DNA of 64,000 bases, taken from IMG/VR virus record IMGVR_UViG_3300035661_000047. One strand, written 5' to 3'. Shown here one piece after another: positions 1,488-61,786 of the stretch. This stretch comes from a virus. Taxonomy: Duplodnaviria > Heunggongvirae > Uroviricota > Caudoviricetes. How positions within the stretch are numbered: position 1 is the first letter of the stretch; every line of letters begins with the position of its first letter. The position numbers were made by a program, and so were the translations under genes. Below the pieces are notes generated by a model. It saw nothing but the letters and a program-made list of their open reading frames with translations. It did not search any database and was not told the origin of the DNA.

Positions 1488-1556
1488 GGTTTCTCCTTTG
1501 TGAAAGCTCCCCGCACTGGCGGGGAGAATTTTTGCGCATTGAGGCGCCGTCAGACT

Positions 1557-2018
1557 TTAATTATAGCGCATCTTCAACTGAAGCGCAACTACTGCTGTAG
1601 GCTTGTCCCCGCTTGGATCAGGGACAGGAGGTACAACAAGAATGTTGGCTCCGTACTTGCCATTCTCGTACTGTAGCACACCAAGGCCGAGAAGTCCAAG
1701 GTTATATTTGTAACGAGGATAGCCGCTTACGAGGCCGTAGATCGCACCGGCAGACCAGTTCCCTTGTGACCACGGAAGCCAAGCCTTTCCTGCGTAGATC
1801 GAGAGTCGATTGTAACTGTTGTTGTAGGCTCCTGCAACAACTTTTTGATCCTCGTCTTTGGCCCTATACTCGAAACCTAACCCAGTGTTCTGCTCGTTGA
1901 AGTGTGCAGAACGGTCTGAGTGGTAAGACCGGATCATGGCAGTCGTCCAGATTTCTTGCGCGCTGACAGGCAGCGCCAAGGTCGAAAGCAGCGCCAGGGC
2001 CGCTAGTACCTTCTTCAT
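1557..2018 (-). CDS. secreted / outer-membrane beta-barrel-like protein with signal peptide
   Basis: RBS AAGGA before ATG at 2018; N-terminal MKKVLAALALLSTLALPVSAQE signal peptide; Tyr/Gly/Asn-rich mature part typical of small OM beta-barrels. Confidence 0.55.
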   Translation of the reverse strand: MKKVLAALALLSTLALPVSAQEIWTTAMIRSYHSDRSAHFNEQNTGLGFEYRAKDEDQKVVAGAYNNSYNRLSIYAGKAWLPWSQGNWSAGAIYGLVSGYPRYKYNLGLLGLGVLQYENGKYGANILVVPPVPDPSGDKPTAVVALQLKMRYN

Positions 2019-2105
2019 TGTAGTCCTTTCAAGGTGTGAAGGCAATAAAAAGCCCGCCACGCGGAATGCGCAGCGGGCCGCTGTAGAGAGGCTTCCGCCA
2101 GCTCG

Positions 2106-2726
2106 TTATTCGTCTTCAGCCGCTTCGATTGCAGCCTCGTAGGCAGCATTGCGCGCTTCCCAGCGGGCGACGAAGCTCTCTGCGTCTAGCCAGATGTCTT
2201 TGCCAGCAAGAAGATTGTCAAGCTCTTCCTCTGACAGAAACCATTCGTATGTCGAGCGCATCACCCGCTCCATGTAAGCGTCTGTGTGCTTTGTCTCTGC
2301 GCGCCAGTCTGAGAACTTTCCAGCAGGGCCAACTGAGCCGTTGTGGATCAAGCAGTTGAAATTCTCAGAGAGAGTGAATTCATCTGCGTTCAGCAAGATG
2401 ACACTACCAGCAGAGTGGACACCGCCGGATGCTTTTACGATGATTCGAGCACTACATTCTCGCATGCCGTGAATGAACGTATCCGTCGCATCAAGGGAAC
2501 CTCCGGGGGTTGATAGGTAAATCTGCACAACGTCGTTCTCAGACGCAACGCTCATTGCTTGAAGAGCATCTACAAACTGCGAGGCATCGTAGATTGGTCC
2601 GTACAGGAAGATGTTGTATACACCAGCACTTGCGGGTACATACGAAACACGGAACGCGCTTGCGTCTTCGTATTCAGAGTCATCAGCAGACTTCTGAGTG
2701 GTGGTAGTTACGCCAAACTTTCGCAT
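2106..2726 (-). CDS. ClpP-like serine peptidase (S14 family)
   Basis: Motifs GGVHSAGSVILL (Ser) and LIHNGSVG (His) match the ClpP catalytic-core pattern; RBS AAAGGAGCATAA before ATG at 2726, overlapping the stop of the phoH-like gene. Confidence 0.6.
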   Translation of the reverse strand: MRKFGVTTTTQKSADDSEYEDASAFRVSYVPASAGVYNIFLYGPIYDASQFVDALQAMSVASENDVVQIYLSTPGGSLDATDTFIHGMRECSARIIVKASGGVHSAGSVILLNADEFTLSENFNCLIHNGSVGPAGKFSDWRAETKHTDAYMERVMRSTYEWFLSEEELDNLLAGKDIWLDAESFVARWEARNAAYEAAIEAAEDE

Positions 2727-2737
2727 TTATGCTCCTT

Positions 2738-3556
2738 TCATGAATTGTGGTAGTAGAGTTTCACGAACGCACGGGTCAGTCCAGAACGAACGACATCTTC
2801 AGGCGTGAATCGTACCACTCCGATGCCATCATCGAGTTCGTCCATGTCGTCGTGCGTCATGTACTCGGGGTGGCCTTGAAGAATCTTGTCAAGAAGCTTA
2901 AGCGTAGTCTCAAGCCCGCTAGTTCCATTCAGGTCGTGCTGCTTCGTATCTCCAGTGAAGACGATTTGGCAATTGTATCCAAGCCGGGTAAGCATCATTT
3001 CCATTTCTTCGGAAGTGAAGTTCTGCACTTCCTCTGCAATGACAATGCAATCCTCGAATGACATGCCACGCAGGTACTCTACTGGCTTCATTTCGATTAC
3101 CTCTTTTTCGAGGCAATACTTTGCATATCCTGCACCGAGAAACTTCTCAAGATGGCTCATTGTCTGAGCAAAGTACGGGGCAAGCTTTTCTTTGATGTCT
3201 CCCGGCAGGAGTCCGACAGACTTTCCGACGCTAACTGCTGGGCGAACAAGGAACACCTTCTTTATTCGCTTGCTTCTGAGCTGCTGGGCAACGCGATACG
3301 CCGCCAGCATCGACTTTCCTGTCCCAGCACTCCCAGTCAGGAAGATGATTGGAACACCGTCTGTCAGAAGACCGATGGCCTTGCGTTGATTGTTGTTCTT
3401 CGGCTCCAGTTTTGGAACTGCTGTCGCAGTCGGTGCAGGAGCGTCGTTAGAGGCGTACTCGTGTGACCGGATGAATCGCGGATCGGGCGTGTTGTCGATC
3501 TTTTCGCGGCGAGTCTGGCGACGGGCCTTAAATTTGCTTCCCAATTTCACCTCCAA
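2738..3556 (-). CDS. phoH: PhoH-like P-loop ATPase
   Basis: Walker A LTGSAGTGKSMLA and overall PhoH-family similarity (272 aa). Confidence 0.8.
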   Translation of the reverse strand: MEVKLGSKFKARRQTRREKIDNTPDPRFIRSHEYASNDAPAPTATAVPKLEPKNNNQRKAIGLLTDGVPIIFLTGSAGTGKSMLAAYRVAQQLRSKRIKKVFLVRPAVSVGKSVGLLPGDIKEKLAPYFAQTMSHLEKFLGAGYAKYCLEKEVIEMKPVEYLRGMSFEDCIVIAEEVQNFTSEEMEMMLTRLGYNCQIVFTGDTKQHDLNGTSGLETTLKLLDKILQGHPEYMTHDDMDELDDGIGVVRFTPEDVVRSGLTRAFVKLYYHNS

Positions 3557-3622
3557 TACTTGTCAATTTCAAGCCGACATGGCTTTGACCTGAGCTGATT
3601 ATACACCACGTACATGGCATAG

Positions 3623-3823
3623 TCAATCAACTCGCAGCAAAGCTGGCTGCGATTTTTGCTCTTCAAGGCGCTTGCGCCCCCATTTTGCAATGATCAGATG
3701 ATCGAACGTTGCATTGTCAGGGATATCCCCAGTGAAGAACGTGTCTAGGAGGCTCTTGTAGTGCTCAGCCTGCTGCTCAGCGTCGATTACACGCTGCTTG
3801 AGCCTTGCAACTGATGCACTCAC
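3623..3823 (-). CDS. hypothetical protein (66 aa)
   Basis: ORF in leftward operon, stop/start overlap with 3820..4095. Confidence 0.4.
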   Translation of the reverse strand: MSASVARLKQRVIDAEQQAEHYKSLLDTFFTGDIPDNATFDHLIIAKWGRKRLEEQKSQPALLRVD

Positions 3824-4095
3824 GATTGCTCCCTCTTAGCTGCTTTTGCAGCCCTTGCGTTCGCCAGAATCTCTGCACGAGTAAGCTTGGCCTCGTCCTT
3901 GATGTCGCTGTCACGGAGCATGATGCACTCGAAGTTGTACCCAAGCATGGTAGGAGGATTAGATGGGTCTATTTCCCAGCCCTCGTCTGATGCCTCAAGG
4001 ATTTGCACAACAAACGATTCGAGGTTGCCAGTCAGAATAGCCTTACTGTTCTTCATTCTCATCCTCCAGTAGCGCTTCTTCCATGTAACTTCCAA
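3820..4095 (-). CDS. hypothetical protein (91 aa)
   Basis: First sizeable ORF downstream of leftward promoter at 4354-4382. Confidence 0.45.
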   Translation of the reverse strand: MEVTWKKRYWRMRMKNSKAILTGNLESFVVQILEASDEGWEIDPSNPPTMLGYNFECIMLRDSDIKDEAKLTRAEILANARAAKAAKREQS

Positions 4096-4214
4096 TGTCC
4101 AGTTGTTCGATTACGGTGAGAAGATCGACAAGAACGTCGTCTCCCCACTCAGGGGCTTCGTCATGATTTCGGGGCACAGATAATACCTCCAGTCAAAGTT
4201 AATGATTAAGAGGT

Positions 4215-4343
4215 ATATCTAAGTCATTGTCTAAGTTATTGTCTAAGTAAACACCTTACTACCTGACTAAATACCCTCTCAGTAAAATAACTAAGTATTG
4301 TCTAAGTAGTATACTTTAGTATTACTTAGAAGTTGTCTTAGTC
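4215..4343. repeat. Direct repeats of TTGTCTAAGT (and inverted ACTTAG copies) - operator/iteron-like array
   Basis: Exact 10-mers at 4227-4236, 4239-4248, 4298-4307; variant TTGTCTTAGT 4333-4342; partial CTAAGT at 4217-4224 and 4291-4296; inverted ACTTAG 4323-4328; AT-rich intergenic region between divergent promoters. Confidence 0.7.
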
Positions 4344-4353
4344 ATATAACTAT

Positions 4354-4382
4354 AGTGTACAGCACGAAGTCAGTCTTGTCAA
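4354..4382 (-). promoter_or_regulatory. leftward sigma70-like promoter (TTGACA-17-TACACT)
   Basis: Minus-strand TTGACA at 4377-4382, TACACT at 4354-4359, 17-nt spacer containing CGTGCTG like the other promoters in this genome; transcription would run through the repeat array into the early leftward operon. Confidence 0.55.
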
Positions 4383-4466
4383 GCCCTGGAGAGGGCCAGT
4401 TCTCATTGTTGAGAATTCCTGCCCGGCAGGGTCCGTCTTCCTGTGCAGGACTGGCCCCGTAGGGGC

Positions 4467-4494
4467 TTGACAATAAATTTTTTCGTGCTACAAT
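4467..4494 (+). promoter_or_regulatory. rightward sigma70-like promoter (TTGACA-16-TACAAT, TGn-extended)
   Basis: TTGACA 4467-4472, CGTGCTACAAT 4484-4494; followed by GGAGGT RBS and ATG at 4523. Confidence 0.6.
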
Positions 4495-4522
4495 TACGGC
4501 TTCTGACACGATGGAGGTAGCA

Positions 4523-4885
4523 ATGAGCAATCATGACAGCTCCACTGCCTCTGTTGTAGTGGTGATGCAAGAGGAAGCCCCAAGCTTCCTGACGAACAGT
4601 GTAGACCTGAAGAAGCTGCACACGGACATCAAACGACACTCCAAAGCCGCCATAGATGCTTTGGTGTCGATGCTAGAGAGTCCTGACCCAAAGATCAAGT
4701 TGACAGCGGCAACGAAGCTGCTAGAATTCCAGGTGTCGGTGGCAAAGGAACTTAGCTCTGACCAGATACAACGCCTCATTGCAGAGGTAAAGCTGGTTAA
4801 GAACCCTAAGAGCAACCTTGTCCCAGTCGAAGAACAGAAGTCTCGGCCTCTCGTGGACTTCACAACAATTCGCTCTGTCGAATAA
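4523..4885 (+). CDS. hypothetical protein (120 aa); terminase small-subunit role not excluded
   Basis: GGAGGT 5 nt before ATG at 4523 (the track start at 4511 lacks an RBS); first rightward gene. Confidence 0.55.
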   Translation: MSNHDSSTASVVVVMQEEAPSFLTNSVDLKKLHTDIKRHSKAAIDALVSMLESPDPKIKLTAATKLLEFQVSVAKELSSDQIQRLIAEVKLVKNPKSNLVPVEEQKSRPLVDFTTIRSVE

Positions 4886-4900
4886 ATTTCTCCATGGCTA

Positions 4901-4928
4901 TTGACATACGGCGGTTCTCGTGTAGAAT
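4901..4928 (+). promoter_or_regulatory. sigma70-like promoter for tRNA array (TTGACA-16-TAGAAT)
   Basis: TTGACA 4901-4906, CGTGTAGAAT 4919-4928, immediately upstream of structured RNA and tRNA genes. Confidence 0.6.
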
Positions 4929-4937
4929 AGCTGCAAG

Positions 4938-5031
4938 TAGAGGAGGGCGTCTCCCCGCAATGGTGCGGGAGCGGGCTGTAACACCGCCGCCCTACGGGCC
5001 ATGATAGGTTCGATACCTATGGCGCCAACCA
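4938..5031 (+). ncRNA. structured tRNA-like RNA (canonical T-arm + CCA 3' end, no canonical acceptor/anticodon fold)
   Basis: ATAGG-TTCGATA-CCTAT T-arm at 5004-5020 followed by GGCGCCA-A-CCA; upstream GC-rich hairpins (CTCCCCGC..GCGGGAG; GCCC-TAC-GGGC); I could not fold a complete cloverleaf by eye. Confidence 0.35.
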
Positions 5032-5080
5032 AACAATGACGTGCTTGACAAATTTTGATTGTCGAGTACAATGACGAAAT

Positions 5081-5156
5081 GGGCTGTGATTGAGCTGGGG
5101 TTCTTGGCTGCTTTGCAAGCAGTTATCGGTGGGTTCGATTCCCACACGGTCCACCA
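5081..5156 (+). tRNA. tRNA-Ala (TGC)
   Basis: 76 nt; G3:U70 pair (Ala identity element), anticodon stem GCTGC/GCAGT, loop TTTGCAA, T-arm GTGGG-TTCGATT-CCCAC, CCA encoded; weak D stem. Confidence 0.65.
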
Positions 5157-5162
5157 TAATTT

Positions 5163-5238
5163 GCCCCATTAGCTCAGTTGGTAGAGCAACTGCATTGTAA
5201 GCAGTAGGTCGTCCGTTCGAGTCGGACAGAGGGCACCA
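5163..5238 (+). tRNA. tRNA-Thr (TGT)
   Basis: 76 nt; D arm GCTC-AGTTGGTA-GAGC, anticodon stem ACTGC/GCAGT with loop ATTGTAA, T-arm GTCCG-TTCGAGT-CGGAC, CCA encoded; two acceptor mismatches. Confidence 0.8.
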
Positions 5239-5245
5239 AGTCTAT

Positions 5246-5330
5246 GCGGTTGTGGCGGAATTGGTAGACGCGCAGCGTTGAGGTCGCTGTGGAGAAATCC
5301 GTGGAGGTTCGAGTCCTCTCAACCGCACCA
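5246..5330 (+). tRNA. tRNA-Leu (GAG), type II with long variable arm
   Basis: 85 nt; perfect acceptor GCGGTTG/CAACCGC, anticodon stem CAGCG/CGCTG with loop TTGAGGT, variable arm GGAGAAATCC, T-arm GGAGG-TTCGAGT-CCTCT, CCA. Confidence 0.85.
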
Positions 5331-5589
5331 TAACGTGCTTGATAGCTCCAGCTAGTGCAGTAACAGCTAGAGACTGCATGATGAGAATCCATCGGTCGCC
5401 CGTTGGAAACAAAAATCTAGATAAACTCTCAGGTATGCGAGTTAAATAGTTGAGTTGCTGGAGGCTACGGCCAATGAAGGTGACGGAGAGAATACCACAT
5501 GCGGGTAAGGTGTTTATGGATACATGCTAGCCTTCCAAGCTTGAGTAGACCAGATCGTTACTGGCTACCCGCTCCACGAATTCTTTGGC

Positions 5590-5666
5590 GTGACGTTATC
5601 TTAATATGGTAAAGAACTAGACTGTGAATCTGGTAAATATGGGTTCGAGTCAAGCGGTGGGCACCA
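5590..5666 (+). pseudogene. degenerate tRNA-like element (5' two-thirds folds as tRNA-His GTG; T-arm/acceptor disrupted)
   Basis: D arm TCTT-AATATGGTA-AAGA and anticodon arm CTAGA-CTGTGAA-TCTGG fold well; GGGTTCGAGTC T-loop present but its 3' half and the acceptor 3' strand do not pair; ends GGGCACCA. Confidence 0.3.
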
Positions 5667-5673
5667 GAATTGA

Positions 5674-5748
5674 TGCGGAGTAGTTCAGTTCGGTAGAACA
5701 GCAGCCTCATAAGCTGACGGTCGTGGGTTCAAAGCCAACCTCACGCAA
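5674..5748 (+). tRNA. tRNA-Met (CAT), imperfect
   Basis: D arm GTTC-AGTTCGGTA-GAAC, anticodon arm GCAGC-CTCATAA-GCTGA, T-arm GTGGG-TTCAAAG-CCAAC; acceptor has 2 mismatches and no encoded CCA. Confidence 0.5.
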
Positions 5749-5755
5749 CAAGATA

Positions 5756-5830
5756 GGATTCTTAGCACAGCGGTAGTGCGGCGCCCTTACAAGGCGTAGG
5801 TCGTAGGTTCGATCCCTACAGAATCCACCA
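5756..5830 (+). tRNA. tRNA-Val (TAC)
   Basis: 75 nt; acceptor GGATTCT/AGAATCC, D arm GCAC-AGCGGTA-GTGC, anticodon stem GCGCC/GGCGT loop CTTACAA, T-arm GTAGG-TTCGATC-CCTAC, CCA. Confidence 0.85.
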
Positions 5831-5919
5831 GTATTGGCAAAAACACGCAAGTGTTGCTGGTTCGAGTCCAGCCCTGTCCATTCCGGGCGGGTAGACAAAT
5901 CGGTAAAGTCGCCAAGTAT

Positions 5920-5992
5920 GCACCTATCGTCTAAAGGTTAGGACAACTGACTTTCTATCAGTGAATGTAGGGTTCAAGTCCCTCTAGGTGCT
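5920..5992 (+). tRNA. tRNA-Glu (TTC)
   Basis: Acceptor GCACCTA/TAGGTGC, D arm GTCT-AAAGGTTA-GGAC, anticodon stem ACTGA/TCAGT loop CTTTCTA, T-loop TTCAAGT; U at position 37 is atypical; no CCA. Confidence 0.6.
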
Positions 5993-6002
5993 ACAGACAT
6001 AT

Positions 6003-6077
6003 TGGCATATAGCTCAGCGGTAGAGCATCCGGCTGTTAACCGGACGGTCAGTGGTTCGATCCCACTTTTGCCAGCCA
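6003..6077 (+). tRNA. tRNA-Asn (GTT)
   Basis: Acceptor TGGCATA/TTTGCCA (U1-A72), D arm GCTC-AGCGGTA-GAGC, anticodon stem TCCGG/CCGGA loop CTGTTAA, T-arm AGTGG-TTCGATC-CCACT, G73 + CCA. Confidence 0.8.
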
Positions 6078-6083
6078 AAATAT

Positions 6084-6159
6084 GGACAGGTAGCTCAGAT
6101 GGTAGAGCGCCGGCCTGAAGAGCCGGGCGTCGTAGGTTCGATCCCTACCCTGTCTACCA
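6084..6159 (+). tRNA. tRNA-Phe (GAA)
   Basis: 76 nt; acceptor GGACAGG/CCTGTCT, D arm GCTC-AGATGGTA-GAGC, anticodon stem CCGGC/GCCGG loop CTGAAGA, T-arm GTAGG-TTCGATC-CCTAC, CCA. Confidence 0.85.
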
Positions 6160-6160
6160 T

Positions 6161-6236
6161 ATATCTATAAGACAATCGGAAGTCGGCAGGACTCCAAATC
6201 CTTGCAGTTGTGGTTCGAGTCCACAGGGATATGCCA
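6161..6236 (+). tRNA. tRNA-Trp (CCA)
   Basis: 76 nt; acceptor ATATCTA/GGGATAT, D loop AATCGGAA, anticodon loop CTCCAAA (CCA), T-arm TGTGG-TTCGAGT-CCACA, G73 + CCA. Confidence 0.75.
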
Positions 6237-6242
6237 AACAAT

Positions 6243-6319
6243 CTGGGTGTATTGTCAGTTGGTAGACGGCGAGCTTTGGAAGCTTGAGGCCGGTGGTTCG
6301 AGTCCACCCATCCAGACCA
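6243..6319 (+). tRNA. tRNA-Pro (TGG)
   Basis: 77 nt; acceptor CTGGGTG/CATCCAG, D arm TGTC-AGTTGGTA-GACG, anticodon stem CGAGC/GCTTG loop TTTGGAA, T-arm GGTGG-TTCGAGT-CCACC, A73 + CCA. Confidence 0.8.
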
Positions 6320-7981: not shown

Positions 7982-9493
7982 ATGCCTGAAGCGAATACGC
8001 CAGATGGCGTAGACTCCGCTGCCCTGGCTCCAGACCCGCAAGCAGTCGTTCCTCGACTCAAGCTCGGCGAGCAAGGTGTCCTAGGTCTTAAGACCAGAAA
8101 CAAGCGAATTCTAGAAGAAGCTCAACAAGCATTCCGCTATCCGAATTTTATCTCAACTGTGAATGAAATGCGCAACAACCCTACAGTTGGTGCGGCTATG
8201 AACGTTTACAGAATGATGATTTCTCGCGTGCAATGGTGTGTAGAGCCAGCAGAGGATGCAACCGACCAAGACAAGGCTCGGACAGAGGCCATCCGAACGA
8301 TGATGCATGACATGGACGGCTCTTGGTCGTCTTTTATCGAAAGTGTCATCCCGTACCTTGAGTACGGCTTTGCTGTAAACGAGATTGTACTGCGTCGCAG
8401 ACTGAAGCGCAATGGGTCTAAGCACAATGACGGTCTTATTGGCCTCAAGAAGCTGGCACCACGTAGCCAAGACACAATCTGCGGCTGGGTGTTCTCAGAG
8501 GATGGTGCAGACCTTCTCAAAGTAGAGCAATCCCTCACAAACATCGAAAACGCCTATCGTTTCCAGAACCGCATAAACGTCAATGGACGGCTTGAGATTG
8601 ACAGAGAGAAGTTTCTCCTGTTCTCGGCAAGCGCGACAAAGGGGAACCCAGAAGGCAATTCGATCTACAAAAACATTTATCTTGCGTTCAAGCAGCTTTC
8701 CTTGCTCCAAAATCAAGAGCTAGTTGGCATTGCAAAGGACGTTCAAGGTATTCTCAAGATCGCAATTCCCCCGCGATATCTTGACCCGAATGCTTCGCCA
8801 GAAGATAAAGCTGCTGTAGCTGCATTCCAGACTATCATCGACAACTACAACGCTGGCACTCAGCGTGGCCTGCTTGTCCCGAACATGATCGACCCGGAAT
8901 CAAAGCTTCCGCTGTTTACCTACGACTTGATGGAGTCAAAGGGTGGCGCGAAGTACGACACTGAATCAGTTATCCGTCGCCTGCAAGGTGATATCCTATC
9001 TGCCCTTAGCGTAGACATTCTCAAGCTTGGAGCAGAAGGCTCGGGTTCATTCTCTCTCGCTGAGAGTAAGAGTTCTGTTCTTGCGCTTGCAATCGACTAC
9101 CGCCTCCGAGAAATCGCCGAGGTGCTTAACTCTCACCTCATGCGTACATTGTACGAAATGAACGGGTGGGACACAAGCAAAATGGCTAAGTTTGTCTACT
9201 CTGACATCGAAGAGGTAAGCCTCGAAGAGTTCAGCAAGGCTGTGCAACGGGTGTTCTCTACGAGTGCCATTGAAGTTGACCGTTCTGTTCTCAACCGCGT
9301 CCGCAAGGTTCTCGGCGTTCCTGAGAAGCCAGATGATGAGCCTGTTGACAAGGAAAACCTTCCATCAGCACTTGCCGGTAATTCTAGCAAGTCCGGTGCA
9401 GGCATGGAAGTCGGTACGACTGGAAATGGGACAGCTAAGAACCCGCAAGGCGGTAAGGACACTTCCACGGCTAACGCCGATAACGCCGCTTGA
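7982..9493 (+). CDS. portal protein
   Basis: 503 aa; position between terL and prohead protease; RBS AAAGGAG; acidic C-terminus. Confidence 0.8.
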   Translation: MPEANTPDGVDSAALAPDPQAVVPRLKLGEQGVLGLKTRNKRILEEAQQAFRYPNFISTVNEMRNNPTVGAAMNVYRMMISRVQWCVEPAEDATDQDKARTEAIRTMMHDMDGSWSSFIESVIPYLEYGFAVNEIVLRRRLKRNGSKHNDGLIGLKKLAPRSQDTICGWVFSEDGADLLKVEQSLTNIENAYRFQNRINVNGRLEIDREKFLLFSASATKGNPEGNSIYKNIYLAFKQLSLLQNQELVGIAKDVQGILKIAIPPRYLDPNASPEDKAAVAAFQTIIDNYNAGTQRGLLVPNMIDPESKLPLFTYDLMESKGGAKYDTESVIRRLQGDILSALSVDILKLGAEGSGSFSLAESKSSVLALAIDYRLREIAEVLNSHLMRTLYEMNGWDTSKMAKFVYSDIEEVSLEEFSKAVQRVFSTSAIEVDRSVLNRVRKVLGVPEKPDDEPVDKENLPSALAGNSSKSGAGMEVGTTGNGTAKNPQGGKDTSTANADNAA

Positions 9494-9507
9494 CAATAGG
9501 AGTTCAA

Positions 9508-10359
9508 ATGCACCCTCATAGCCTTCTAAGGCTTTCCTCGAAAATCTACAACACACCTCACCTCATCACACCAGAAGCTTTCAGCGTCGTGCTTGACTAT
9601 CTAGATTCCCGTAATTCGCGGGATTTTAGAATGGACTTCATTGACGGGCCTGACCCAGAAGACGATCAAGAAGCTCCAATGTATGCCAACGGCCTTGGCA
9701 TCCTTCGAGTAGATGGTAGCCTGACGTATAAGCCGGTTATGACGCTTTGCGGAGAGGCTGGTACAAGCTACCAGTCTCTTGTAAACCAAGTCGAAGACAT
9801 GGCAGAAGCTGGCGTAAAAACAATCGTCATGGAAGTGACATCTGGCGGCGGTGAAGCCTCACACGTATTCCAAGCTTGCGAAGATATTCGCGCAATCTGC
9901 GACGAAAACGAAATCACCCTGATTGGATACGCCGACACTATCGCAGCATCTGCGGCCTACGCCCTCATCTGCGTGTGCGATCAAGTTATTGCAAACCCAT
10001 CTGCTTCTCTTGGGTCTATCGGCTGCGTTGTTGCGCTGTTGGACACTTCTAAGGCGATGGATAACGCAGGACTGAAGAGAATCTTCGTAACGTCTGGCGA
10101 GTCCAAGGTTCCATTTGCTGAAGATGGGTCGTTTAAGAAGTCGTTCCTCGCAGAGACTCAATCTGATGTGGACAGGCTCAACTTAGAGTTTGCAACACAC
10201 GTCAGCAAGTACACAGGTCTTGATGTAAAGACTATCACTGGATTTGAAGCCAAAGTCTTTGATGCTGCAACAGCAGTTGAAAAGGGGCTTGCAAATGCTG
10301 TCATGACGAATAAGCAGTTCTCTGCATACGTCGCTCAAATTCAAAAGGAAATGCAATGA
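9508..10359 (+). CDS. prohead maturation protease (S49/ClpP-fold, lambda gpC-like)
   Basis: AGGAG RBS before ATG 9508; ClpP/SppA-like core (IVMEVTSGGGE..., AASAAYALICVCD...); position portal-protease-scaffold. Confidence 0.75.
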   Translation: MHPHSLLRLSSKIYNTPHLITPEAFSVVLDYLDSRNSRDFRMDFIDGPDPEDDQEAPMYANGLGILRVDGSLTYKPVMTLCGEAGTSYQSLVNQVEDMAEAGVKTIVMEVTSGGGEASHVFQACEDIRAICDENEITLIGYADTIAASAAYALICVCDQVIANPSASLGSIGCVVALLDTSKAMDNAGLKRIFVTSGESKVPFAEDGSFKKSFLAETQSDVDRLNLEFATHVSKYTGLDVKTITGFEAKVFDAATAVEKGLANAVMTNKQFSAYVAQIQKEMQ

Positions 10360-49976: not shown

Positions 49977-50762
49977 TCAAATCTCCTTTACGTGCGGCTT
50001 CGCCGCGTTGCTCATCAGGTTCGAGACGTAGATTGTATCGTAAAACTGTGTTAGAACTTCAGCACCTTTCGTGAAAAATCCGTGTGTAACGTATAGTGCC
50101 ATCGTCTTTGGCTTGTGCTTCTTCAGCACTTTTGCAAGCTCAATAAACGTCACACCGCCATCGCACAGGTCATCGACAACACATACTGTCTTTCCAGTGA
50201 TTTCTTCGCCACCATACACAGTAGTGTCAACGATCTTCCCAGTATAGTCTCGCTTCTTGTCTGCGACAAGCACTTTCGATTCAGGCCGGTTTGAAGTCAG
50301 CTTGAAAATCTTCTTACTTGCACCAGCGTCAGGTGCAACAAAGATATCGAAACTTGGCAGGCTCCACGCACACTCAGCCTGTTCTGTCACAACAAGGTTG
50401 TTGACGACTGCTTCAAGAACGTAGCTGTGGGCGTCCATTGTGTAGACGCTTGAGAAGTTCAAGCTGTTGATGTAGGCTGCAACCATCTTAAGGGCATAGC
50501 CCTCTCCTTGGTTGCAACGGTGGTCTTGGCGCGAGTATGGAAAGTACGGAATGTTCAGCGCGATGTGTTGCACGTCGTTGTGTCGAAGCGCATCAACCAG
50601 TTGCCCAAGGGCTAGAAGGTCGTCATTTCCTTCCCACAGGAGTGTAATCTCAACTTCCCCGTGCGTAAAGCCAGTTTCGATCTTGACACCTACTTCTCCG
50701 CACGGGAACTTCCACACTTTAACAGGGGTTTCCAACCCCGTCACACTCTTTGCAGAAAGCAT
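49977..50762 (-). CDS. ribose-phosphate pyrophosphokinase family protein (Prs-like; candidate ADPR-PP synthetase Adps)
   Basis: NIPYFPYSRQDHR, TMDAHS, VAPDAGASKK, CVVDDLCDGGVTF match PRPP-synthetase motifs; 2 nt from the NAMPT-like gene. Confidence 0.75.
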   Translation of the reverse strand: MLSAKSVTGLETPVKVWKFPCGEVGVKIETGFTHGEVEITLLWEGNDDLLALGQLVDALRHNDVQHIALNIPYFPYSRQDHRCNQGEGYALKMVAAYINSLNFSSVYTMDAHSYVLEAVVNNLVVTEQAECAWSLPSFDIFVAPDAGASKKIFKLTSNRPESKVLVADKKRDYTGKIVDTTVYGGEEITGKTVCVVDDLCDGGVTFIELAKVLKKHKPKTMALYVTHGFFTKGAEVLTQFYDTIYVSNLMSNAAKPHVKEI

Positions 50763-51737: not shown

Positions 51738-51813
51738 TGGCGCGTCTGGTAGGACTCGAACCCACAACCCGTAGCCTAGAACACTCTTGCTCTATCCTTT
51801 GAGCTACAGACGC
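51738..51813 (-). tRNA. tRNA-Arg (TCT)-like, weak anticodon stem
   Basis: Reverse complement GCGTCTG-TA-GCTC-AAAGGATA-GAGC-A-AGAGT-GTTCTAG-GCTAC-GGGTT-GTGGG-TTCGAGT-CCTAC-CAGACGC-G-CCA: perfect acceptor, D and T arms, 76 nt with CCA; anticodon stem has two mismatches. Confidence 0.55.
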
Positions 51814-55348: not shown

Positions 55349-55603
55349 CTATTTTGAAACTGTTCCGAAGTCCGGTGCCCAGCCTTCGATCATAGCACCT
55401 TTCATCCCGCCAGTTGCGAGAGCAAGAATGACAGCGTTGAAAACGTAGTCAGGAATTTCTTCGAGCGCAGGAACGTTTCCGTCCTGATTTGCCCCGGCCA
55501 GTGCTAGTTCGATGATGGATTCGGACAGGTCTTTGATTTCGTTAATTAGTTCTCTTTTGTTAGGCTGCGATATCCTCGTTAACATCACGCTTAAGCAGCG
55601 CAA
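55349..55603 (-). CDS. hypothetical protein
   Basis: 84 aa ORF whose start overlaps the end of the helicase gene. Confidence 0.4.
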   Translation of the reverse strand: MRCLSVMLTRISQPNKRELINEIKDLSESIIELALAGANQDGNVPALEEIPDYVFNAVILALATGGMKGAMIEGWAPDFGTVSK

Positions 55604-57149
55604 CTTGCGATTTCACATACGCGCCGAAACGCTCGTCGGTGCCTTGCTCTTCACTGTCTTCCCACACGCCGAGATATTCGGCGACAGTCAGATTGTATTC
55701 CAGCTTGTCGATTGCCCGCGTAGAAGCAACATACAGCAGATTTTGCTCTTCAGTTGACAGGCCAGTCCACTCGCCGTCTTCATTGTAGCACGATTTGAAG
55801 TCGCTTTCAATACGCACTTGACTCCACTCGCGGCCCTTCGACTTGTGCGCCGTCGTGAACGTCACATGGGGTTCACGGCTGTTGCAGTGGCATTTTAGGA
55901 TGGAAATCCAGTTCTCTGCAAGACCTTCCTTGACAACCTTGACAATCCGGCCAAGCTCGGCATCACCCTTAGATTCAGCAACCATTTCATACCATTCCGT
56001 GTACGGCAGCATCTTGTCGTGCTTGACGTTCTTCATATCACCACGGTAGAGAGCGACAGCCGATTGTAGCAGCTTAACGAAGTCCTTCACGTCGATTTCG
56101 ATAGAAACTTCAGTGCCTTTCCGAATCTCGCTGATTGCAGCGTACAACAGCGCGCTGTTTGTGCGGAACAGCCGGGTGTACGGCTGAGATTCATCGACGA
56201 TACCTGCGTTCTTGGCAACAGACGCGATCTTCTCGTTTCCGGTGATAGTCATTGCGCCTTCAAGCACCGCAGTGGCGATGTCTGCAACAGCCTGACCGTA
56301 GCGGAAGCTCTTGGTCAAGTGGCGCGAAGCACAATCTACCATCTGCATCGCATTGACAGCCCCGCGCCAGCCATAGATTGCTTGGCGGGCATCCCCCACC
56401 ATGACAATCTTCATGTGGCCTTGCTGGTTCAGGATTATGTCCAGAACGCATGGCGTGGTATCTTGGAACTCATCGACGTACACGACTTGAAAACCGTGGA
56501 ACACGGGCTTCGAGAGCTGGTACATCTTGAGATACGTGTCGTGAGTAGCAAGAACAGGGCTGTTGATCTTCGTGCGCTTGCTCCAGAGCTTCTGTGCAAC
56601 TCCGAACACGATGCCCTTGACGTAGTTCAGTGCTTGCATGTTCTCTGCGAGCTTGTCCTTGAGGTCCGCCATCGGAACGTGTTTCATAGCCAGTTTAGGA
56701 TCAGCCGACTGCTCGAATCGAGCAACAGCTTCACGGGCCAGCAGGCCGATGAAATTTGCGCTGATAGCAACGCCATCCGCCGTCTCAAAGGAGTTAACGT
56801 TGAAGTACCGTGCGATTTCCGAGCCAGTGCCTGCAACGTTGACGTAACGGCCCTTGGGACGGCTCAGCTTGTCGCGCAGCTTTGCGCCAAAAGCGGCGTA
56901 AGCCATGCTGTGAGTGGTCTTGCAAACCACATGCTTCGGAAATTTTTTGCTTGATTCGGTCGCAGTGACCTTGTTGAATGCCAAGTACAGGCTGGGAACT
57001 TCGTGAGACGCGGCCATCATGGTGAGCGTAGAAGTTTTTCCAGAGCCTGCGCATGCTTCTATCTTGAGCATGTCTTCGGTCTTGAGAGCGGTGATGCATT
57101 GCTGTTGTTGCTGTGTAGGAGTGCGGCTCATTTGTTTCTTTCCGTTCAA
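55560..57149 (-). CDS. UvrD/PcrA-like SF1 DNA helicase
   Basis: Motif I ACAGSGKTSTL and motif II VYVDEFQDTT (DExQD); 529 aa. Confidence 0.75.
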   Translation of the reverse strand: MNGKKQMSRTPTQQQQQCITALKTEDMLKIEACAGSGKTSTLTMMAASHEVPSLYLAFNKVTATESSKKFPKHVVCKTTHSMAYAAFGAKLRDKLSRPKGRYVNVAGTGSEIARYFNVNSFETADGVAISANFIGLLAREAVARFEQSADPKLAMKHVPMADLKDKLAENMQALNYVKGIVFGVAQKLWSKRTKINSPVLATHDTYLKMYQLSKPVFHGFQVVYVDEFQDTTPCVLDIILNQQGHMKIVMVGDARQAIYGWRGAVNAMQMVDCASRHLTKSFRYGQAVADIATAVLEGAMTITGNEKIASVAKNAGIVDESQPYTRLFRTNSALLYAAISEIRKGTEVSIEIDVKDFVKLLQSAVALYRGDMKNVKHDKMLPYTEWYEMVAESKGDAELGRIVKVVKEGLAENWISILKCHCNSREPHVTFTTAHKSKGREWSQVRIESDFKSCYNEDGEWTGLSTEEQNLLYVASTRAIDKLEYNLTVAEYLGVWEDSEEQGTDERFGAYVKSQVALLKRDVNEDIAA

Positions 57150-60004: not shown

Positions 60005-61786
60005 TCAATACTTCACATGGTTAGATTCAAGCCACTTCCGCTTGTTGTACAGCTTGTGCTGCTCGGCATCGTAGTAGAACTCACCGGCAGGGCCGGTTTG
60101 GGAGTTGTCACGATTCTTACTGATGAACGCCTTCGTGGTGTTGCGCTCAATCGGGTCAGGGTTCATCTTATCACGAACCAGAAGGATGTTCAAGGCTGCT
60201 GACTTGAAGATCGTAGAACTTCCTTGGAAGTCTTCTTCAGAAATCATAGCGCCGCTGGAATTCTGCTGGGATTGGCCGCCACCCGACTTACGAACGTGGT
60301 TGATGTTGATGAAGGTCATGCTGTGGCTCTTAATCAAGCCCTTCTGCCACTTCAAAAACACAGCCTGCTCTTCGTTCGTCATTCCGTCCAAGATGTCTTG
60401 CAACGGGTCCAGAATGATAACACGAACTCCACATGAAATCACCAACTGTTCTACAACAGCCTTGAGGTCTTCAACAGAACCGTCACGATCATCGACTAGG
60501 TAGAACCTGTGCGAACCATCTTCACGGTAGAACAGCTCCTTTTCCTTTGCCTTTACCCAGTCTTGGTCTAGGAACTTCGACTTTTCTGCATGGTCTTTGA
60601 TGTTGTTGATCTTGTACTTGATGTACCGACTCAACATCGAAATACCGTACTGACCGGCATTTAGCTCCATAGAGACGATGCCGACAAGGTGCGGGCAGTT
60701 GAAAGCCCAGTACATGACGCATTCGTCAACGTACACAGTCTTGCCAAGACCAGAGGCAGCGCCGATGTTGACGATTCGGCCAAGGCCGATGCCGTCAGCA
60801 GTCATTTCATTGACCTCTTCCATGAAGTCGGGGAAACGAATCTTCTCTACTAAAGCTTCCTCTCGCAGACGGCCAGACAGCTCCCCAGAGCCAAGAACGC
60901 CAGCAGGCATGTACTGCTTTGCATTCCAGAAGTCCTGAATGAAATCTCGCTCTTTTCCGGCTTTAACGTAGTCATCCGCATCCTTGAAGCGCATCGACAT
61001 GACGTACACGCGACCCTTTGGCAAGACTTTTGCGATCTTCTCCGCAGCCTCTTCCCCAGCCTTATCCGCATCCATGCAAACGATGATCTTTTCAAACTGT
61101 GCAAAGAACTCGTAGCGGCTCTGTACCTGCTTGTATGCCCCGCTCTCGCCGAGCGTTGAGCACACGACAGCAGGGGGTTCAAACTCCGACTTACCACGAC
61201 GTTCAAGATCGTCTTTGAGCATCTGGTAAGTGTTAAGCAGCTTCGTCTCTCCGCCAACGATAATAACCGTTCGCTTGGAGTTCTTGAATCGGAATTCACC
61301 AATCATGTCGCATTCTTTTCCGACCTGACCGATAGGGTTCGAGAAGTCCTTCGGGAATACGCGGGTTCGGTATCCAGCCAACTGGCTGTCAATAGTCGTC
61401 GGGAAATACTGCTTGCAAGGCTCGCCAGTCTCGGCGTCGTACTCGTAGCGAACTCCGAAATACTTGTTGGTTTCGTCCCGGATTCCACGGTAGCCGTGGC
61501 CCTTCGTCCCGGTGTAGCTCTTTATTTCAGCGTTCTGTTCGTCTGTGATTTTTTCTCTTGTCATTACTTCTTCATCCTCTTCCTCTTCGGCATCCCACCC
61601 CATCTTAGCCATGTGCTCATCTGAAGGGATAGTGAAATTGCAAGACCAGCAAAAGGCGCCGTTACCGGCGCCATATACATGCAGGTTGTTACCAGCGTTG
61701 TCGCGGCCGTTACGTCGGCAGCGCGGGCATGCTGTCTTGTACTCGTAACTGAGGTCGATTCCGTACTTTTCAGCCGGTGCCGTCAT
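60005..61786 (-). CDS. primase-helicase (T7 gp4-like)
   Basis: N-terminal zinc-binding CPRC...CWSC, TOPRIM-like middle (IVGGE...DAD), DnaB-like helicase with P-loop GAASGLGKT; 593 aa. Confidence 0.85.
   Translation of the reverse strand: MTAPAEKYGIDLSYEYKTACPRCRRNGRDNAGNNLHVYGAGNGAFCWSCNFTIPSDEHMAKMGWDAEEEEDEEVMTREKITDEQNAEIKSYTGTKGHGYRGIRDETNKYFGVRYEYDAETGEPCKQYFPTTIDSQLAGYRTRVFPKDFSNPIGQVGKECDMIGEFRFKNSKRTVIIVGGETKLLNTYQMLKDDLERRGKSEFEPPAVVCSTLGESGAYKQVQSRYEFFAQFEKIIVCMDADKAGEEAAEKIAKVLPKGRVYVMSMRFKDADDYVKAGKERDFIQDFWNAKQYMPAGVLGSGELSGRLREEALVEKIRFPDFMEEVNEMTADGIGLGRIVNIGAASGLGKTVYVDECVMYWAFNCPHLVGIVSMELNAGQYGISMLSRYIKYKINNIKDHAEKSKFLDQDWVKAKEKELFYREDGSHRFYLVDDRDGSVEDLKAVVEQLVISCGVRVIILDPLQDILDGMTNEEQAVFLKWQKGLIKSHSMTFININHVRKSGGGQSQQNSSGAMISEEDFQGSSTIFKSAALNILLVRDKMNPDPIERNTTKAFISKNRDNSQTGPAGEFYYDAEQHKLYNKRKWLESNHVKY

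Follow-up and report, generated by a model that had tools for sequence, protein, structure and literature searches.

A recurrent phoH–clpP-like gene pair in tailed bacteriophages, encoding a predicted serine peptidase distinct from the prohead protease

Introduction

Why should a phage that already encodes a protease for head maturation carry a second, ClpP-like peptidase directly downstream of a PhoH-family ATPase, and do the two proteins form one machine? The question is raised by a 64,000-nucleotide stretch of DNA from a virus of the Caudoviricetes (IMG/VR record IMGVR_UViG_3300035661_000047), referred to as the window throughout. The phage is known from metagenomes only, and a near-identity DNA search with positions 1500-4200 has given no match among cultured phages. 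A sequence-only reading of this DNA had proposed a translationally coupled, early-expressed ATPase and peptidase pair serving as a dedicated module for host takeover or anti-defence.

Few phage auxiliary genes are as widespread as phoH, which serves as a diversity marker, and phage PhoH has been described as lacking a demonstrated function (PMC7824862; phage G paper). The phoH and ClpP-like families are both already annotated in hundreds of phages. The papers that we have found list both genes, and none of them discusses their pairing as a unit.

The PhoH and ClpP-like Proteins

The phoH gene (2738..3556, minus strand), recognized from the ORF list and profile matches, encodes a PhoH-family P-loop NTPase of 272 amino acids. 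Its start is TTG 3556, with an in-frame TTG at 3544, located behind GGAGG, as the alternative. The ORF matches the Pfam PhoH profile PF02562 over its full length (profile positions 2-204 of 205, E = 4.6e-53, 180 bits at a cutoff of 27), as well as phrog_170 (5e-71) and PDB 3B85 (3.7e-32), and these matches together with the Walker A motif GSAGTGKS (nt 3334-3311) have borne out its earlier assignment as a PhoH-like P-loop ATPase. The Walker B motif reads IVIAEE, with EE replacing DE; in the alignment this hhhhEE form is consistent within the clade of the window PhoH, and DE is found elsewhere. The JGI protein P0121 is 100% identical to the window PhoH. Only helicase-type families (AAA_19 and AAA_30) appear among its "AAA" Pfam matches; rather than an AAA+ unfoldase, PhoH is a P-loop protein of the SF1-helicase-like type.

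The clpP-like gene (2106..2726, minus strand) encodes a protein of 206 amino acids, which profiles, alignment, and predicted structure identify as a serine peptidase of the ClpP/crotonase fold. A comparison of S14 and S49 profiles, suggested by the sequence-only reading, has come out on the ClpP side: the ORF matches Pfam CLP_protease PF00574 above threshold (E = 5.2e-12, 46.4 bits at a cutoff of 20.2, positions 18-166 of 182), whereas no S49 match has been obtained at E ≤ 0.1 in the Pfam profile search. It further matches phrog_1827, labelled "ATP-dependent protease" (1.6e-42), and by phmmer 12 solved ClpP sequences, the closest being P. aeruginosa ClpP2 (7m1l, 9ndj; E = 6e-9). The catalytic Ser and His that had been read from the sequence are indeed present and are joined by an aspartate, as Ser105 (nt 2414-2412), His128 (2345-2343), and Asp177 (2198-2196) occupy the positions of the ClpP triad in the alignment. 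All 65/65 family members have these three residues together with G75 and G76 of the oxyanion-hole PGG; when the family is taken more widely across phages, Ser and His remain invariant, while the acidic position varies (D, E, Q, or S).

With bacterial ClpP (MEROPS S14; E. coli ClpP and P. aeruginosa ClpP2), to which it is about 18-25% identical, the window protein shares the triad with its spacing, the oxyanion PGG, the core, and a helix at the handle position. It differs in an extended C-terminal helix and in two features related to Clp ATPases. It lacks the conserved axial (gating) loop at the N-terminus, through which ClpP is coupled to ClpX/ClpA: the N-terminal ∼24 amino acids are variable and disordered (residues 1-20 of the AF2 model have a pLDDT <50), the first 17 positions of PF00574 are unmatched, and across lineages the region is unalignable, length-variable, and not aligned to the axial-loop segment of E. 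coli ClpP. At the positions that correspond to Tyr60 and Tyr62 of E. coli ClpP, which we take to be docking-pocket residues from the ClpP-ADEP and ClpX structures, the phage family shows no conservation in a sequence alignment. The AF2 model has shown a ClpP/crotonase alpha-beta core, yet the monomer superposes on ClpP over a core of ∼100 residues only, and the orientation of the handle-position helix is unreliable. A Lys/Arg-rich C-terminal tail, present in most relatives, is missing in the window protein. From its sequence, we predict the protein to be a catalytically competent, non-morphogenetic serine peptidase. A scan of one-genome-per-species bacterial contigs for the ClpP-like family has yielded 0 confirmed loci.

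The head-maturation function is assigned to another gene, an S49 prohead protease (9490..10359, plus strand) between the portal and the scaffold/major capsid genes, which matches PF01343 (4.3e-18, 66 bits) and phrog_53 (2.7e-65) and is not detected by the HMM of the ClpP-like family. It follows that the phage has two different proteases, S49 at 9490-10359 and a ClpP fold at 2106-2726, just as the sequence-only reading had held. An S49 protease likewise occupies the head module of two relatives (L003 and L005).

Organization of the Cassette

The two genes are separated by a gap of 11 nt. At the coupling junction (2727..2740, minus strand; TGA-AAGGAG-CATAA-ATG) the phoH stop codon TGA (2740-2738) is followed by the Shine-Dalgarno sequence AAGGAG (2737-2732), a 5-nt spacer, and the ATG (2726-2724), which confirms that the ribosome-binding site and start of the peptidase gene lie within 12 nt of the phoH stop. 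Most related loci have the same arrangement with the stop inside the Shine-Dalgarno sequence (TAAGGAG, gap of 8-12 nt) or overlaps of 1-26 nt. Since short gaps and overlaps are common between adjacent phage genes, the 11-nt junction by itself is only a weak indication of a complex.

A sigma70-type promoter is predicted about 40 nt before phoH begins (3598..3626, minus strand; TTGACT-17 nt-TATAAT, 11/12 matches), and a TTGACA-17-TAnnnT-like site (at least 10/12) occurs within ∼200 nt upstream of phoH at 13 of 34 distinct related loci. A predicted strong intrinsic terminator (2041..2079, minus strand; 2079-2051 in a narrower delimitation), composed of a 12-bp stem with 9 G-C pairs and a subsequent TTTTATT, lies 27 nt past the clpP-like stop. 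A hairpin with T-run (≤ −10 kcal/mol) follows the clpP-like gene at 31/34 related loci (91%), compared with a background of 4% of random 120-nt windows. The two genes are thus predicted to form a discrete bicistronic unit with a promoter and terminator of its own. Of the "early operon" proposed before, the operon has found support in this predicted unit, whereas its early timing is something that we only infer; the gene block defined as the "early region" of PAK_P4 is another one (PMC5563952). Regarding the neighbours named in the sequence-only reading, the beta-barrel protein is PagP-like, and the ORFs at 414-1224 have given no Pfam match that would bear out an "RNA-ligase/tRNA-binding-like" gene.

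Recurrence of the Pair and Its Exceptions

The order phoH to clpP-like has been found in 25/25 IMG/VR relatives, in ICP1, PWH3a-P1, F98, phiPsa300 (Otagovirus), Barba18A (Barbavirus), slur12 (Vequintavirus), and Limnohabitans DC31, and is reported for P26059A (PMC5964084). Conservation of the pair in relatives, which had been proposed as a check, therefore extends beyond the IMG/VR loci to about eight cultured or isolate lineages. Families, order, and strand are the same as in the window in Otagovirus phiPsa300/phiPsa374 (gp046-gp045), Barbavirus (gp073-gp072), ICP1, PWH3a-P1, F98, and slur12. Like the window, the cultured phages have a terminator past the protease gene and a separate head protease, and the phiPsa300 pair, overlapping by 8 nt, has a similarly tight junction; their pairs lie in the metabolic/replication half of the genome, in Otagovirus beside the tRNA array. 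Their ClpP-like proteins are only about 20-33% identical to the window protein, carry extra C-terminal sequence in the ICP1 and rV5 types (about 310-350 aa in total), and differ in the acidic triad residue, which is Glu in Otagovirus/Vequintavirus, Gln or Ser in Barbavirus/F98, and Asp in the window protein.

Inserts between the two genes, where present, are mostly HNH homing endonucleases, and the gene order has survived three independent insertions of this kind. In ICP1, an HNH endonuclease and a 60-aa ORF lie between the genes, unlike the 11-nt junction of the window. The inserts do not amount to a third conserved component, a possibility that has been considered and rejected: they are HNH endonucleases (three PHROG families) or a PD-(D/E)XK nuclease; otherwise the sole shared ORF in this position is the 60-aa ORF of ICP1 and PWH3a-P1. 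Even between lineages so divergent that ClpP-like identity falls to about 25-30%, and with other neighbours exchanged, the order is kept, and it has also withstood apparent in-place replacement of PhoH alleles (PhoH 21-36% identical versus 39-54% for the ClpP-like protein). The broader synteny RNR ... phoH ... clpP-like ... DNA ligase is common to ICP1, PWH3a-P1, F98, and phiPsa300, so that descent alone may explain part of the linkage. In relatives, the clpP-like gene is found among genes for RNR, DNA ligase, dCMP deaminase, and NAD salvage.

Each gene also occurs without the other. A ClpP-like neighbour is missing at 63/73 viral PhoH loci sampled with a narrower PhoH alignment, the broader one being too divergent for scanning. 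Pakpunavirus JG004 carries the protease in the same syntenic slot, with the clpP-like-ligase part of the synteny kept and with upstream neighbours that fall into PHROG families 5019 and 5067, as they do in phiPsa300, which has PhoH, but phoH is missing from the slot, and its 93-kb genome holds no PhoH. No PhoH adjoins the protease of T5-like, N4-like, KVP40, and Avunavirus phages, and in T5-like phages the gene upstream of it encodes a dNMP kinase instead. T5/BF23 ORF45, KVP40 ClpP, AD45-P1 gp065, and JG004 gp042 belong to the same broad family (HMM scores of 143-220 bits); such stand-alone phage proteases conserve Ser and His and are encoded outside the structural module, and unlike the window protein they have no PhoH beside them. 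For the Clp protease ORF45 of BF23, the "function [is] currently unknown" (PMC10644984).

A mirror-tree comparison across genomes has given no co-evolution signal between the two proteins: the identities of PhoH and the ClpP-like protein correlate with r = 0.18 (partial r of 0.16 when controlling for TerL), which is no better than either gene against TerL. No PF02562+PF00574 fusion occurs among the best 120+120 homologues listed, a weak negative, and none of the Walker-A ORFs of at least 150 aa in the window encodes a ClpX/ClpA-like AAA+ protein.

Discussion

Could PhoH and the ClpP-like protein constitute a two-component ATP-dependent protease? The upstream position of phoH at all 25 IMG/VR loci and in several isolate phages, the tight or overlapping junctions, and the predicted promoter and terminator that bound the pair all speak for it, and no further candidate for an ATPase partner is offered by the window, where PhoH takes the place next to the peptidase and, unlike in ClpXP/ClpAP, an AAA+ partner gene is lacking. 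The non-conserved ClpX/ClpA docking features would leave room for a different partner, and the Lys/Arg-rich tail of most relatives would lie on the would-be apical face. A parallel is offered by PIN-PhoH2 fusions and by the genetically linked ybeZ and ybeY, in which a PhoH domain is coupled to a hydrolytic enzyme as in the window, with the difference that this partner is a ribonuclease there and a protease here, where the coupling is known from the genes alone. PhoH2, according to work cited in PMC7824862, couples RNA helicase and RNase activities. Mechanistically, a PhoH hexamer (RecA-fold, non-AAA+) would bind the apical face of the ClpP-like ring and feed it with substrates, possibly RNA-bound proteins. 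Against such a machine stand the PhoH-less JG004 and at least five other lineages with no PhoH beside the protease, the unpaired majority of viral PhoH loci, the missing fusion among the 240 homologues listed, and the shared broader synteny, and the independent shuffling of alleles (r = 0.18) argues against a co-adapted interface. To our knowledge, a non-AAA+ motor driving a ClpP-type barrel is without precedent. We therefore judge the two-component protease to be unlikely, and the docked hexamer carries the same low probability; a new class of ATP-dependent protease that has PhoH as its hitherto missing motor, an SF1-helicase-like RecA-fold NTPase in place of an AAA+ unfoldase, and that would possibly act on RNA-bound proteins, appears more doubtful still. 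Of the dedicated ATPase and peptidase module postulated before, the linked and recurrent pair has remained, while its dedication is not supported in view of these exceptions and of the non-AAA+ nature of PhoH. A host-takeover proteolytic machine is not supported, considering that the protease lives without adjacent PhoH and that a co-evolution signal is lacking, and an anti-defence role of the pair, to which none of the observations points, is speculation.

The ClpP-like protein might instead exploit the host Clp system and re-target or disable the regulated proteolysis of the host, with PhoH being functionally unrelated, which we hold to be improbable. Its closest solved relative, ClpP2, works only in a hetero-complex with ClpP1, its His-to-Asp spacing and putative handle-helix position match ClpP, and the window encodes no AAA+ unfoldase. 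Moreover, a comparative review classes phage ClpP as probably directed at the host, and mentions that ClpS adaptors for host ClpAP are found in other phages (PMC7824862). Docking to host ClpX/ClpA or stacking on the host ClpP ring as a mixed tetradecamer, in the manner of P. aeruginosa ClpP1/ClpP2, would be the conceivable modes, and they are just as improbable; the axial-loop motif for ClpX/ClpA coupling is absent from a variable region, the Tyr60/Tyr62-equivalent positions are not conserved within the family, and the strict conservation of Ser and His argues against a purely inhibitory decoy. Least probable is a second morphogenetic or virion-associated protease, with tail, internal, or ejected proteins as its possible targets, or one that might itself be packaged and delivered into the next host. 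Weaker PHROG matches to head-maturation families (phrog_1684, 1.6e-20; phrog_94, 1.3e-13) and records that label homologues as head-maturation protease would fit this role, and BF23 ORF45 has been detected in purified virions beside the true prohead protease, but with a signal about 1,400-fold below that of the major capsid protein (PMC10644984). In addition, the gene is set apart from the structural module and on the strand opposite to it, in a cassette with its own sigma70 promoter beside metabolic genes; its relatives share this metabolic setting, and the head module already holds an S49 protease.

Our preferred reading, tentative and put at somewhat less than an even chance, is an accessory cassette that combines an open ClpP-type ring with a co-expressed, dispensable PhoH companion. 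The conserved and self-contained cassette of host-type promoter, phoH, clpP-like gene, and terminator would be transcribed by the host RNA polymerase, presumably before or independently of the structural genes, and would yield two cytoplasmic enzymes in fixed proportion. As the canonical gating loop is absent and the pocket residues are not conserved, while the ClpP core and the handle-position helix are present, one may postulate a ClpP-type ring with an ungated pore, resembling N-terminally truncated or ADEP-opened ClpP, which would need neither ClpX nor ClpA to cleave peptides and unfolded or nascent proteins. PhoH would be an active RNA-helicase-like NTPase, and both proteins would probably serve one infection phase, in which host macromolecules are remodelled or recycled. 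Based on JG004, the stand-alone proteases, and the lack of a co-evolution signal, PhoH may be regarded as a dispensable companion rather than the obligate motor of the protease. The open pore, however, is suggested by absent motifs, not by positive evidence, and barrel formation and handle geometry are not established by the AF2 monomer. Two further points count against the accessory cassette: an order kept through divergence, insertions, and apparent PhoH allele swaps is the pattern expected of a real functional partnership, and host PhoH or YbeZ could replace a lost phage PhoH in Pakpunavirus.

Conclusion

The notion of a two-protein machine is only partly supported; nothing shows PhoH and the ClpP-like protein to work as one. 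If PhoH were the motor, phage PhoH would obtain its first assigned function. If the proteins are independent, the finding has consequences for annotation all the same: "ATP-dependent protease" is an unproven label, and phage clpP-like genes should not be named head-maturation proteases. A recurrent phoH-clpP-like cassette, predicted to be separately transcribed, offers a concrete and testable lead in tractable phages, as it is carried by ICP1, phiPsa374, rV5-like phages, and Barbavirus, with Pakpunavirus as a natural PhoH-less comparison.

Structure of the cassette

The minus strand from 3626 to 2041 contains two ORFs, phoH (2738-3556) and a clpP-like gene (2106-2726), with a near-consensus sigma70 promoter (TTGACT-17-TATAAT, 11/12 matches, 3626-3598) just upstream of phoH and a strong intrinsic terminator (2079-2051, minus strand; 12-bp stem with nine G-C pairs, then a T-run) 27 nt past the clpP-like stop. 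The junction reads TGA-AAGGAG-CATAA-ATG, which sets the ribosome-binding site of the protease gene directly against the stop codon of phoH, in agreement with the close spacing that the sequence-only reading had described; related loci have, as a rule, either a stop-in-SD junction (TAAGGAG, gap 8-12 nt) or overlaps of 1-26 nt. A hairpin with T-run (<= -10 kcal/mol) has been found 3' of the protease gene in 31/34 related loci, against a background rate of 4% in 120-nt windows drawn at random from these loci, and a strong sigma70-type promoter lies upstream of phoH in 13 of the 34 distinct related loci. The experimentally defined early region of the related phage PAK_P4 is a gene block other than the cassette.

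Directly after the cassette terminator, a PagP-like gene (1557-2060, minus strand, probable start ATG 2018) encodes a signal-peptide-bearing homologue of the lipid A palmitoyltransferase of the outer membrane (phrog_3600, 1.9e-18; Pfam PagP only 0.016), which may be a moron modifying the host envelope. In the plus-strand stretches 4467-5072 and 5081-6319, a 10-tRNA array is preceded by four near-consensus sigma70 promoters (11/12 each), which point away from the two leftward promoters (4382-4354 and 3626-3598); a single tRNA-Arg(tct) is located at 51738-51813 (minus strand).

The two enzymes and the head protease

The upstream product has been assigned to the PhoH-family P-loop NTPases by Pfam PF02562 (180 bits, profile positions 2-204 of 205), phrog_170 (5e-71) and the solved PhoH 3B85 (3.7e-32). 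Its Walker A motif is GSAGTGKS, and its Walker B motif is hhhhEE (E175 and E176, window 3034-3029), in place of the canonical hhhhDE of other phage PhoHs. Since the EE variant is common to the whole clade, it is not a sign of decay, and a functional gene is probable. The role of phage PhoH has been called enigmatic (PMC7824862).

The downstream product matches the Pfam CLP_protease profile (46.4 bits, cutoff 20.2) and phrog_1827 'ATP-dependent protease' (1.6e-42), with no S49 match at E<=0.1. The S49 profile and phrog_53 'head maturation protease' (2.7e-65) instead match the ORF at 9490-10359, flanked by Mu-like portal and scaffold/capsid genes; the two proteases of the phage are therefore unrelated, and the earlier distinction between a ClpP-like peptidase and the prohead protease holds. 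In one metagenomic relative (L005), an extra 325-aa ORF with no Pfam match (2358-3335) lies between portal and S49 protease; this insert is absent from the window and from a second relative, L003.

Alignment to solved ClpPs places the catalytic triad at Ser105, His128 and Asp177, and neither these residues nor Gly75 and Gly76 of the oxyanion hole vary among 65 family members or in a 24-sequence set reaching ICP1 and PWH3a-P1 at 30% identity. The catalytic Ser and His noted earlier are thus both present, and they remain invariant across wider phage lineages and E. coli ClpP, with Asp or Glu, occasionally Gln or Ser, as the acid. In this wider alignment (A5; L032, L035, L036, L037, L122, L125), members of the window clade have Asp as the third residue, those of Otagovirus, Pakpunavirus and Vequintavirinae have Glu, and Barbavirus and F98 have Gln or Ser; a Ser-His dyad may suffice for catalysis in the wider family.

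In comparison with canonical ClpP, the N-terminal axial loop is missing: no profile position before 18 is covered by the Pfam match, disorder spans residues 1-20, and the N-terminal region is variable in every alignment. By sequence alignment, the two tyrosines of the IGF/LGF docking pocket of E. coli ClpP have no conserved counterparts in the phage proteins. Most relatives carry a 30-50 aa C-terminal extension with a Lys/Arg-rich end (alignments A1/A2; e.g., KKPRKKRSK; L003 10001-10711), which suggests that the apical face binds nucleic acid or a partner; the window protein has no such tail.

Conservation of the pair

In two metagenomic genomes and in each of the 25 IMG/VR loci that a ClpP-like alignment recovered, PhoH directly precedes the ClpP-like gene and shares its strand. 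The same order has been observed in the cultured phages Pseudomonas Otagovirus phiPsa300 (8-nt overlap), Limnohabitans phage DC31 (overlapping), Rheinheimera Barba18A, Vibrio ICP1, PWH3a-P1 and F98, Escherichia Vequintavirus slur12 and, as its paper describes, siphovirus P26059A (ORF116/117; PMC5964084), so that the two genes are indeed kept together in relatives. No paper treating phoH and Clp protease as a unit was found in the searchable literature. The ClpP-like family has 192 matches in a large protein database, many on 80-95 kb phage contigs, and 854 cultured-phage records have a tblastn match to the protease; annotations for both families exist in hundreds of cultured phages, and the window protein, <=33% identical to any cultured phage, adds a divergent member. 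The family was not found in bacteria in one-genome-per-species contigs, and no PhoH-ClpP fusion occurs among the homologues listed.

Where 0.5-0.9 kb lie between the two genes, an HNH homing endonuclease, exactly at the junction in several relatives, is the insert in L007 (9478-9990), L012 (9448-9990), L013 (9194-9922), L018 (9172-9906), L021 (9284-10000) and L094 (6711-7277), and the larger insert ORF in ICP1 (4149-4781). PHROG scans of four of these gave three different families (374, 953, 99), and those of L012, L018 and L021 are BLAST homologues of the scanned ones. The L110 insert is a PD-(D/E)XK nuclease; PWH3a-P1, F98 and slur12 carry small ORFs of unknown function between the two genes. 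L007, the closest relative of the window (93% ClpP-like identity), has the HNH insert and the window does not, which looks like a presence/absence polymorphism marking the junction as a homing site.

Limits of the partnership and interpretation

In an IMG/VR sample anchored on PhoH, 73 loci had sufficient sequence downstream, and 63 of them lack a ClpP-like gene within 3 kb; PhoH is therefore mostly solitary. Conversely, the protease occurs without adjacent PhoH in KVP40 (between frd and uvsX), two N4-like phages, two T5-like phages (dNMP kinase upstream), Avunavirus Av-05 and Pakpunavirus JG004. JG004 is the most informative case: PhoH was not found in a search of its whole 93-kb genome, and the two genes upstream of its protease belong to PHROG families 5019 and 5067, as in phiPsa300. 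ICP1, PWH3a-P1, F98 and phiPsa300 share an RNR ... phoH ... clpP-like ... DNA ligase synteny, of which JG004, lacking phoH, keeps the clpP-like–ligase part; some of the adjacency may therefore be due to common descent. Pairwise identities of the two proteins correlate poorly (r=0.18 across 24 genomes), no better than either with TerL, and in some genomes a very divergent PhoH (21-36% identity) beside a moderately conserved protease suggests that the PhoH allele was replaced in place.

The JG004 layout mirrors the window, with a leftward metabolic operon (ClpP-like gene, DNA ligase, NAD-salvage genes) followed by a tRNA array and, after it, the TerL-portal-head genes. In the related contig L005, the genes straight after the cassette are those for PRPP synthetase, NAMPT, Macro and RtcB; in the window, a PRPP-synthetase-like ORF maps to 49977-50762.

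We tentatively favour, at a little under even confidence, a conserved accessory cassette of two enzymes, a ClpP-fold peptidase, non-morphogenetic and by its residues catalytically competent, and a PhoH NTPase that would be co-expressed with it but would not be its obligate motor. Because the canonical gate is lacking and, by alignment, the docking tyrosines are not conserved, the peptidase would probably form an ungated ring acting on peptides and unfolded proteins. A protease proper driven by PhoH appears unlikely beside the genomes that hold one gene without the other. Among the Walker-A ORFs of at least 150 aa in the window, none codes for an AAA+ unfoldase; cassette PhoH and TerL aside, the only sizeable P-loop proteins are a UvrD-like SF1 helicase (55560-57149, minus strand), with a weak sub-threshold PhoH-profile match at Walker A, and a Toprim-DnaB primase-helicase (60005-61786, minus strand).

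That the ClpP-like protein hijacks, or mixes with, the host Clp system is in keeping with its nearest solved relative, P. aeruginosa ClpP2, an isoform that functions as part of a ClpP1/P2 hetero-complex; with the N-terminal axial loop missing, we regard this as rather improbable. For a morphogenetic or packaged protease one may cite BF23, in whose virions traces of 'Clp protease ORF45, function unknown' were detected (PMC10644984); such a role seems very unlikely in a phage with its own S49 prohead protease. No support has been found for an anti-defence role of the pair. Tempered by the clear counter-examples to an obligate PhoH/ClpP-like partnership, the accessory cassette offers a testable entry point to the study of phage PhoH and of the orphan phage Clp protease.
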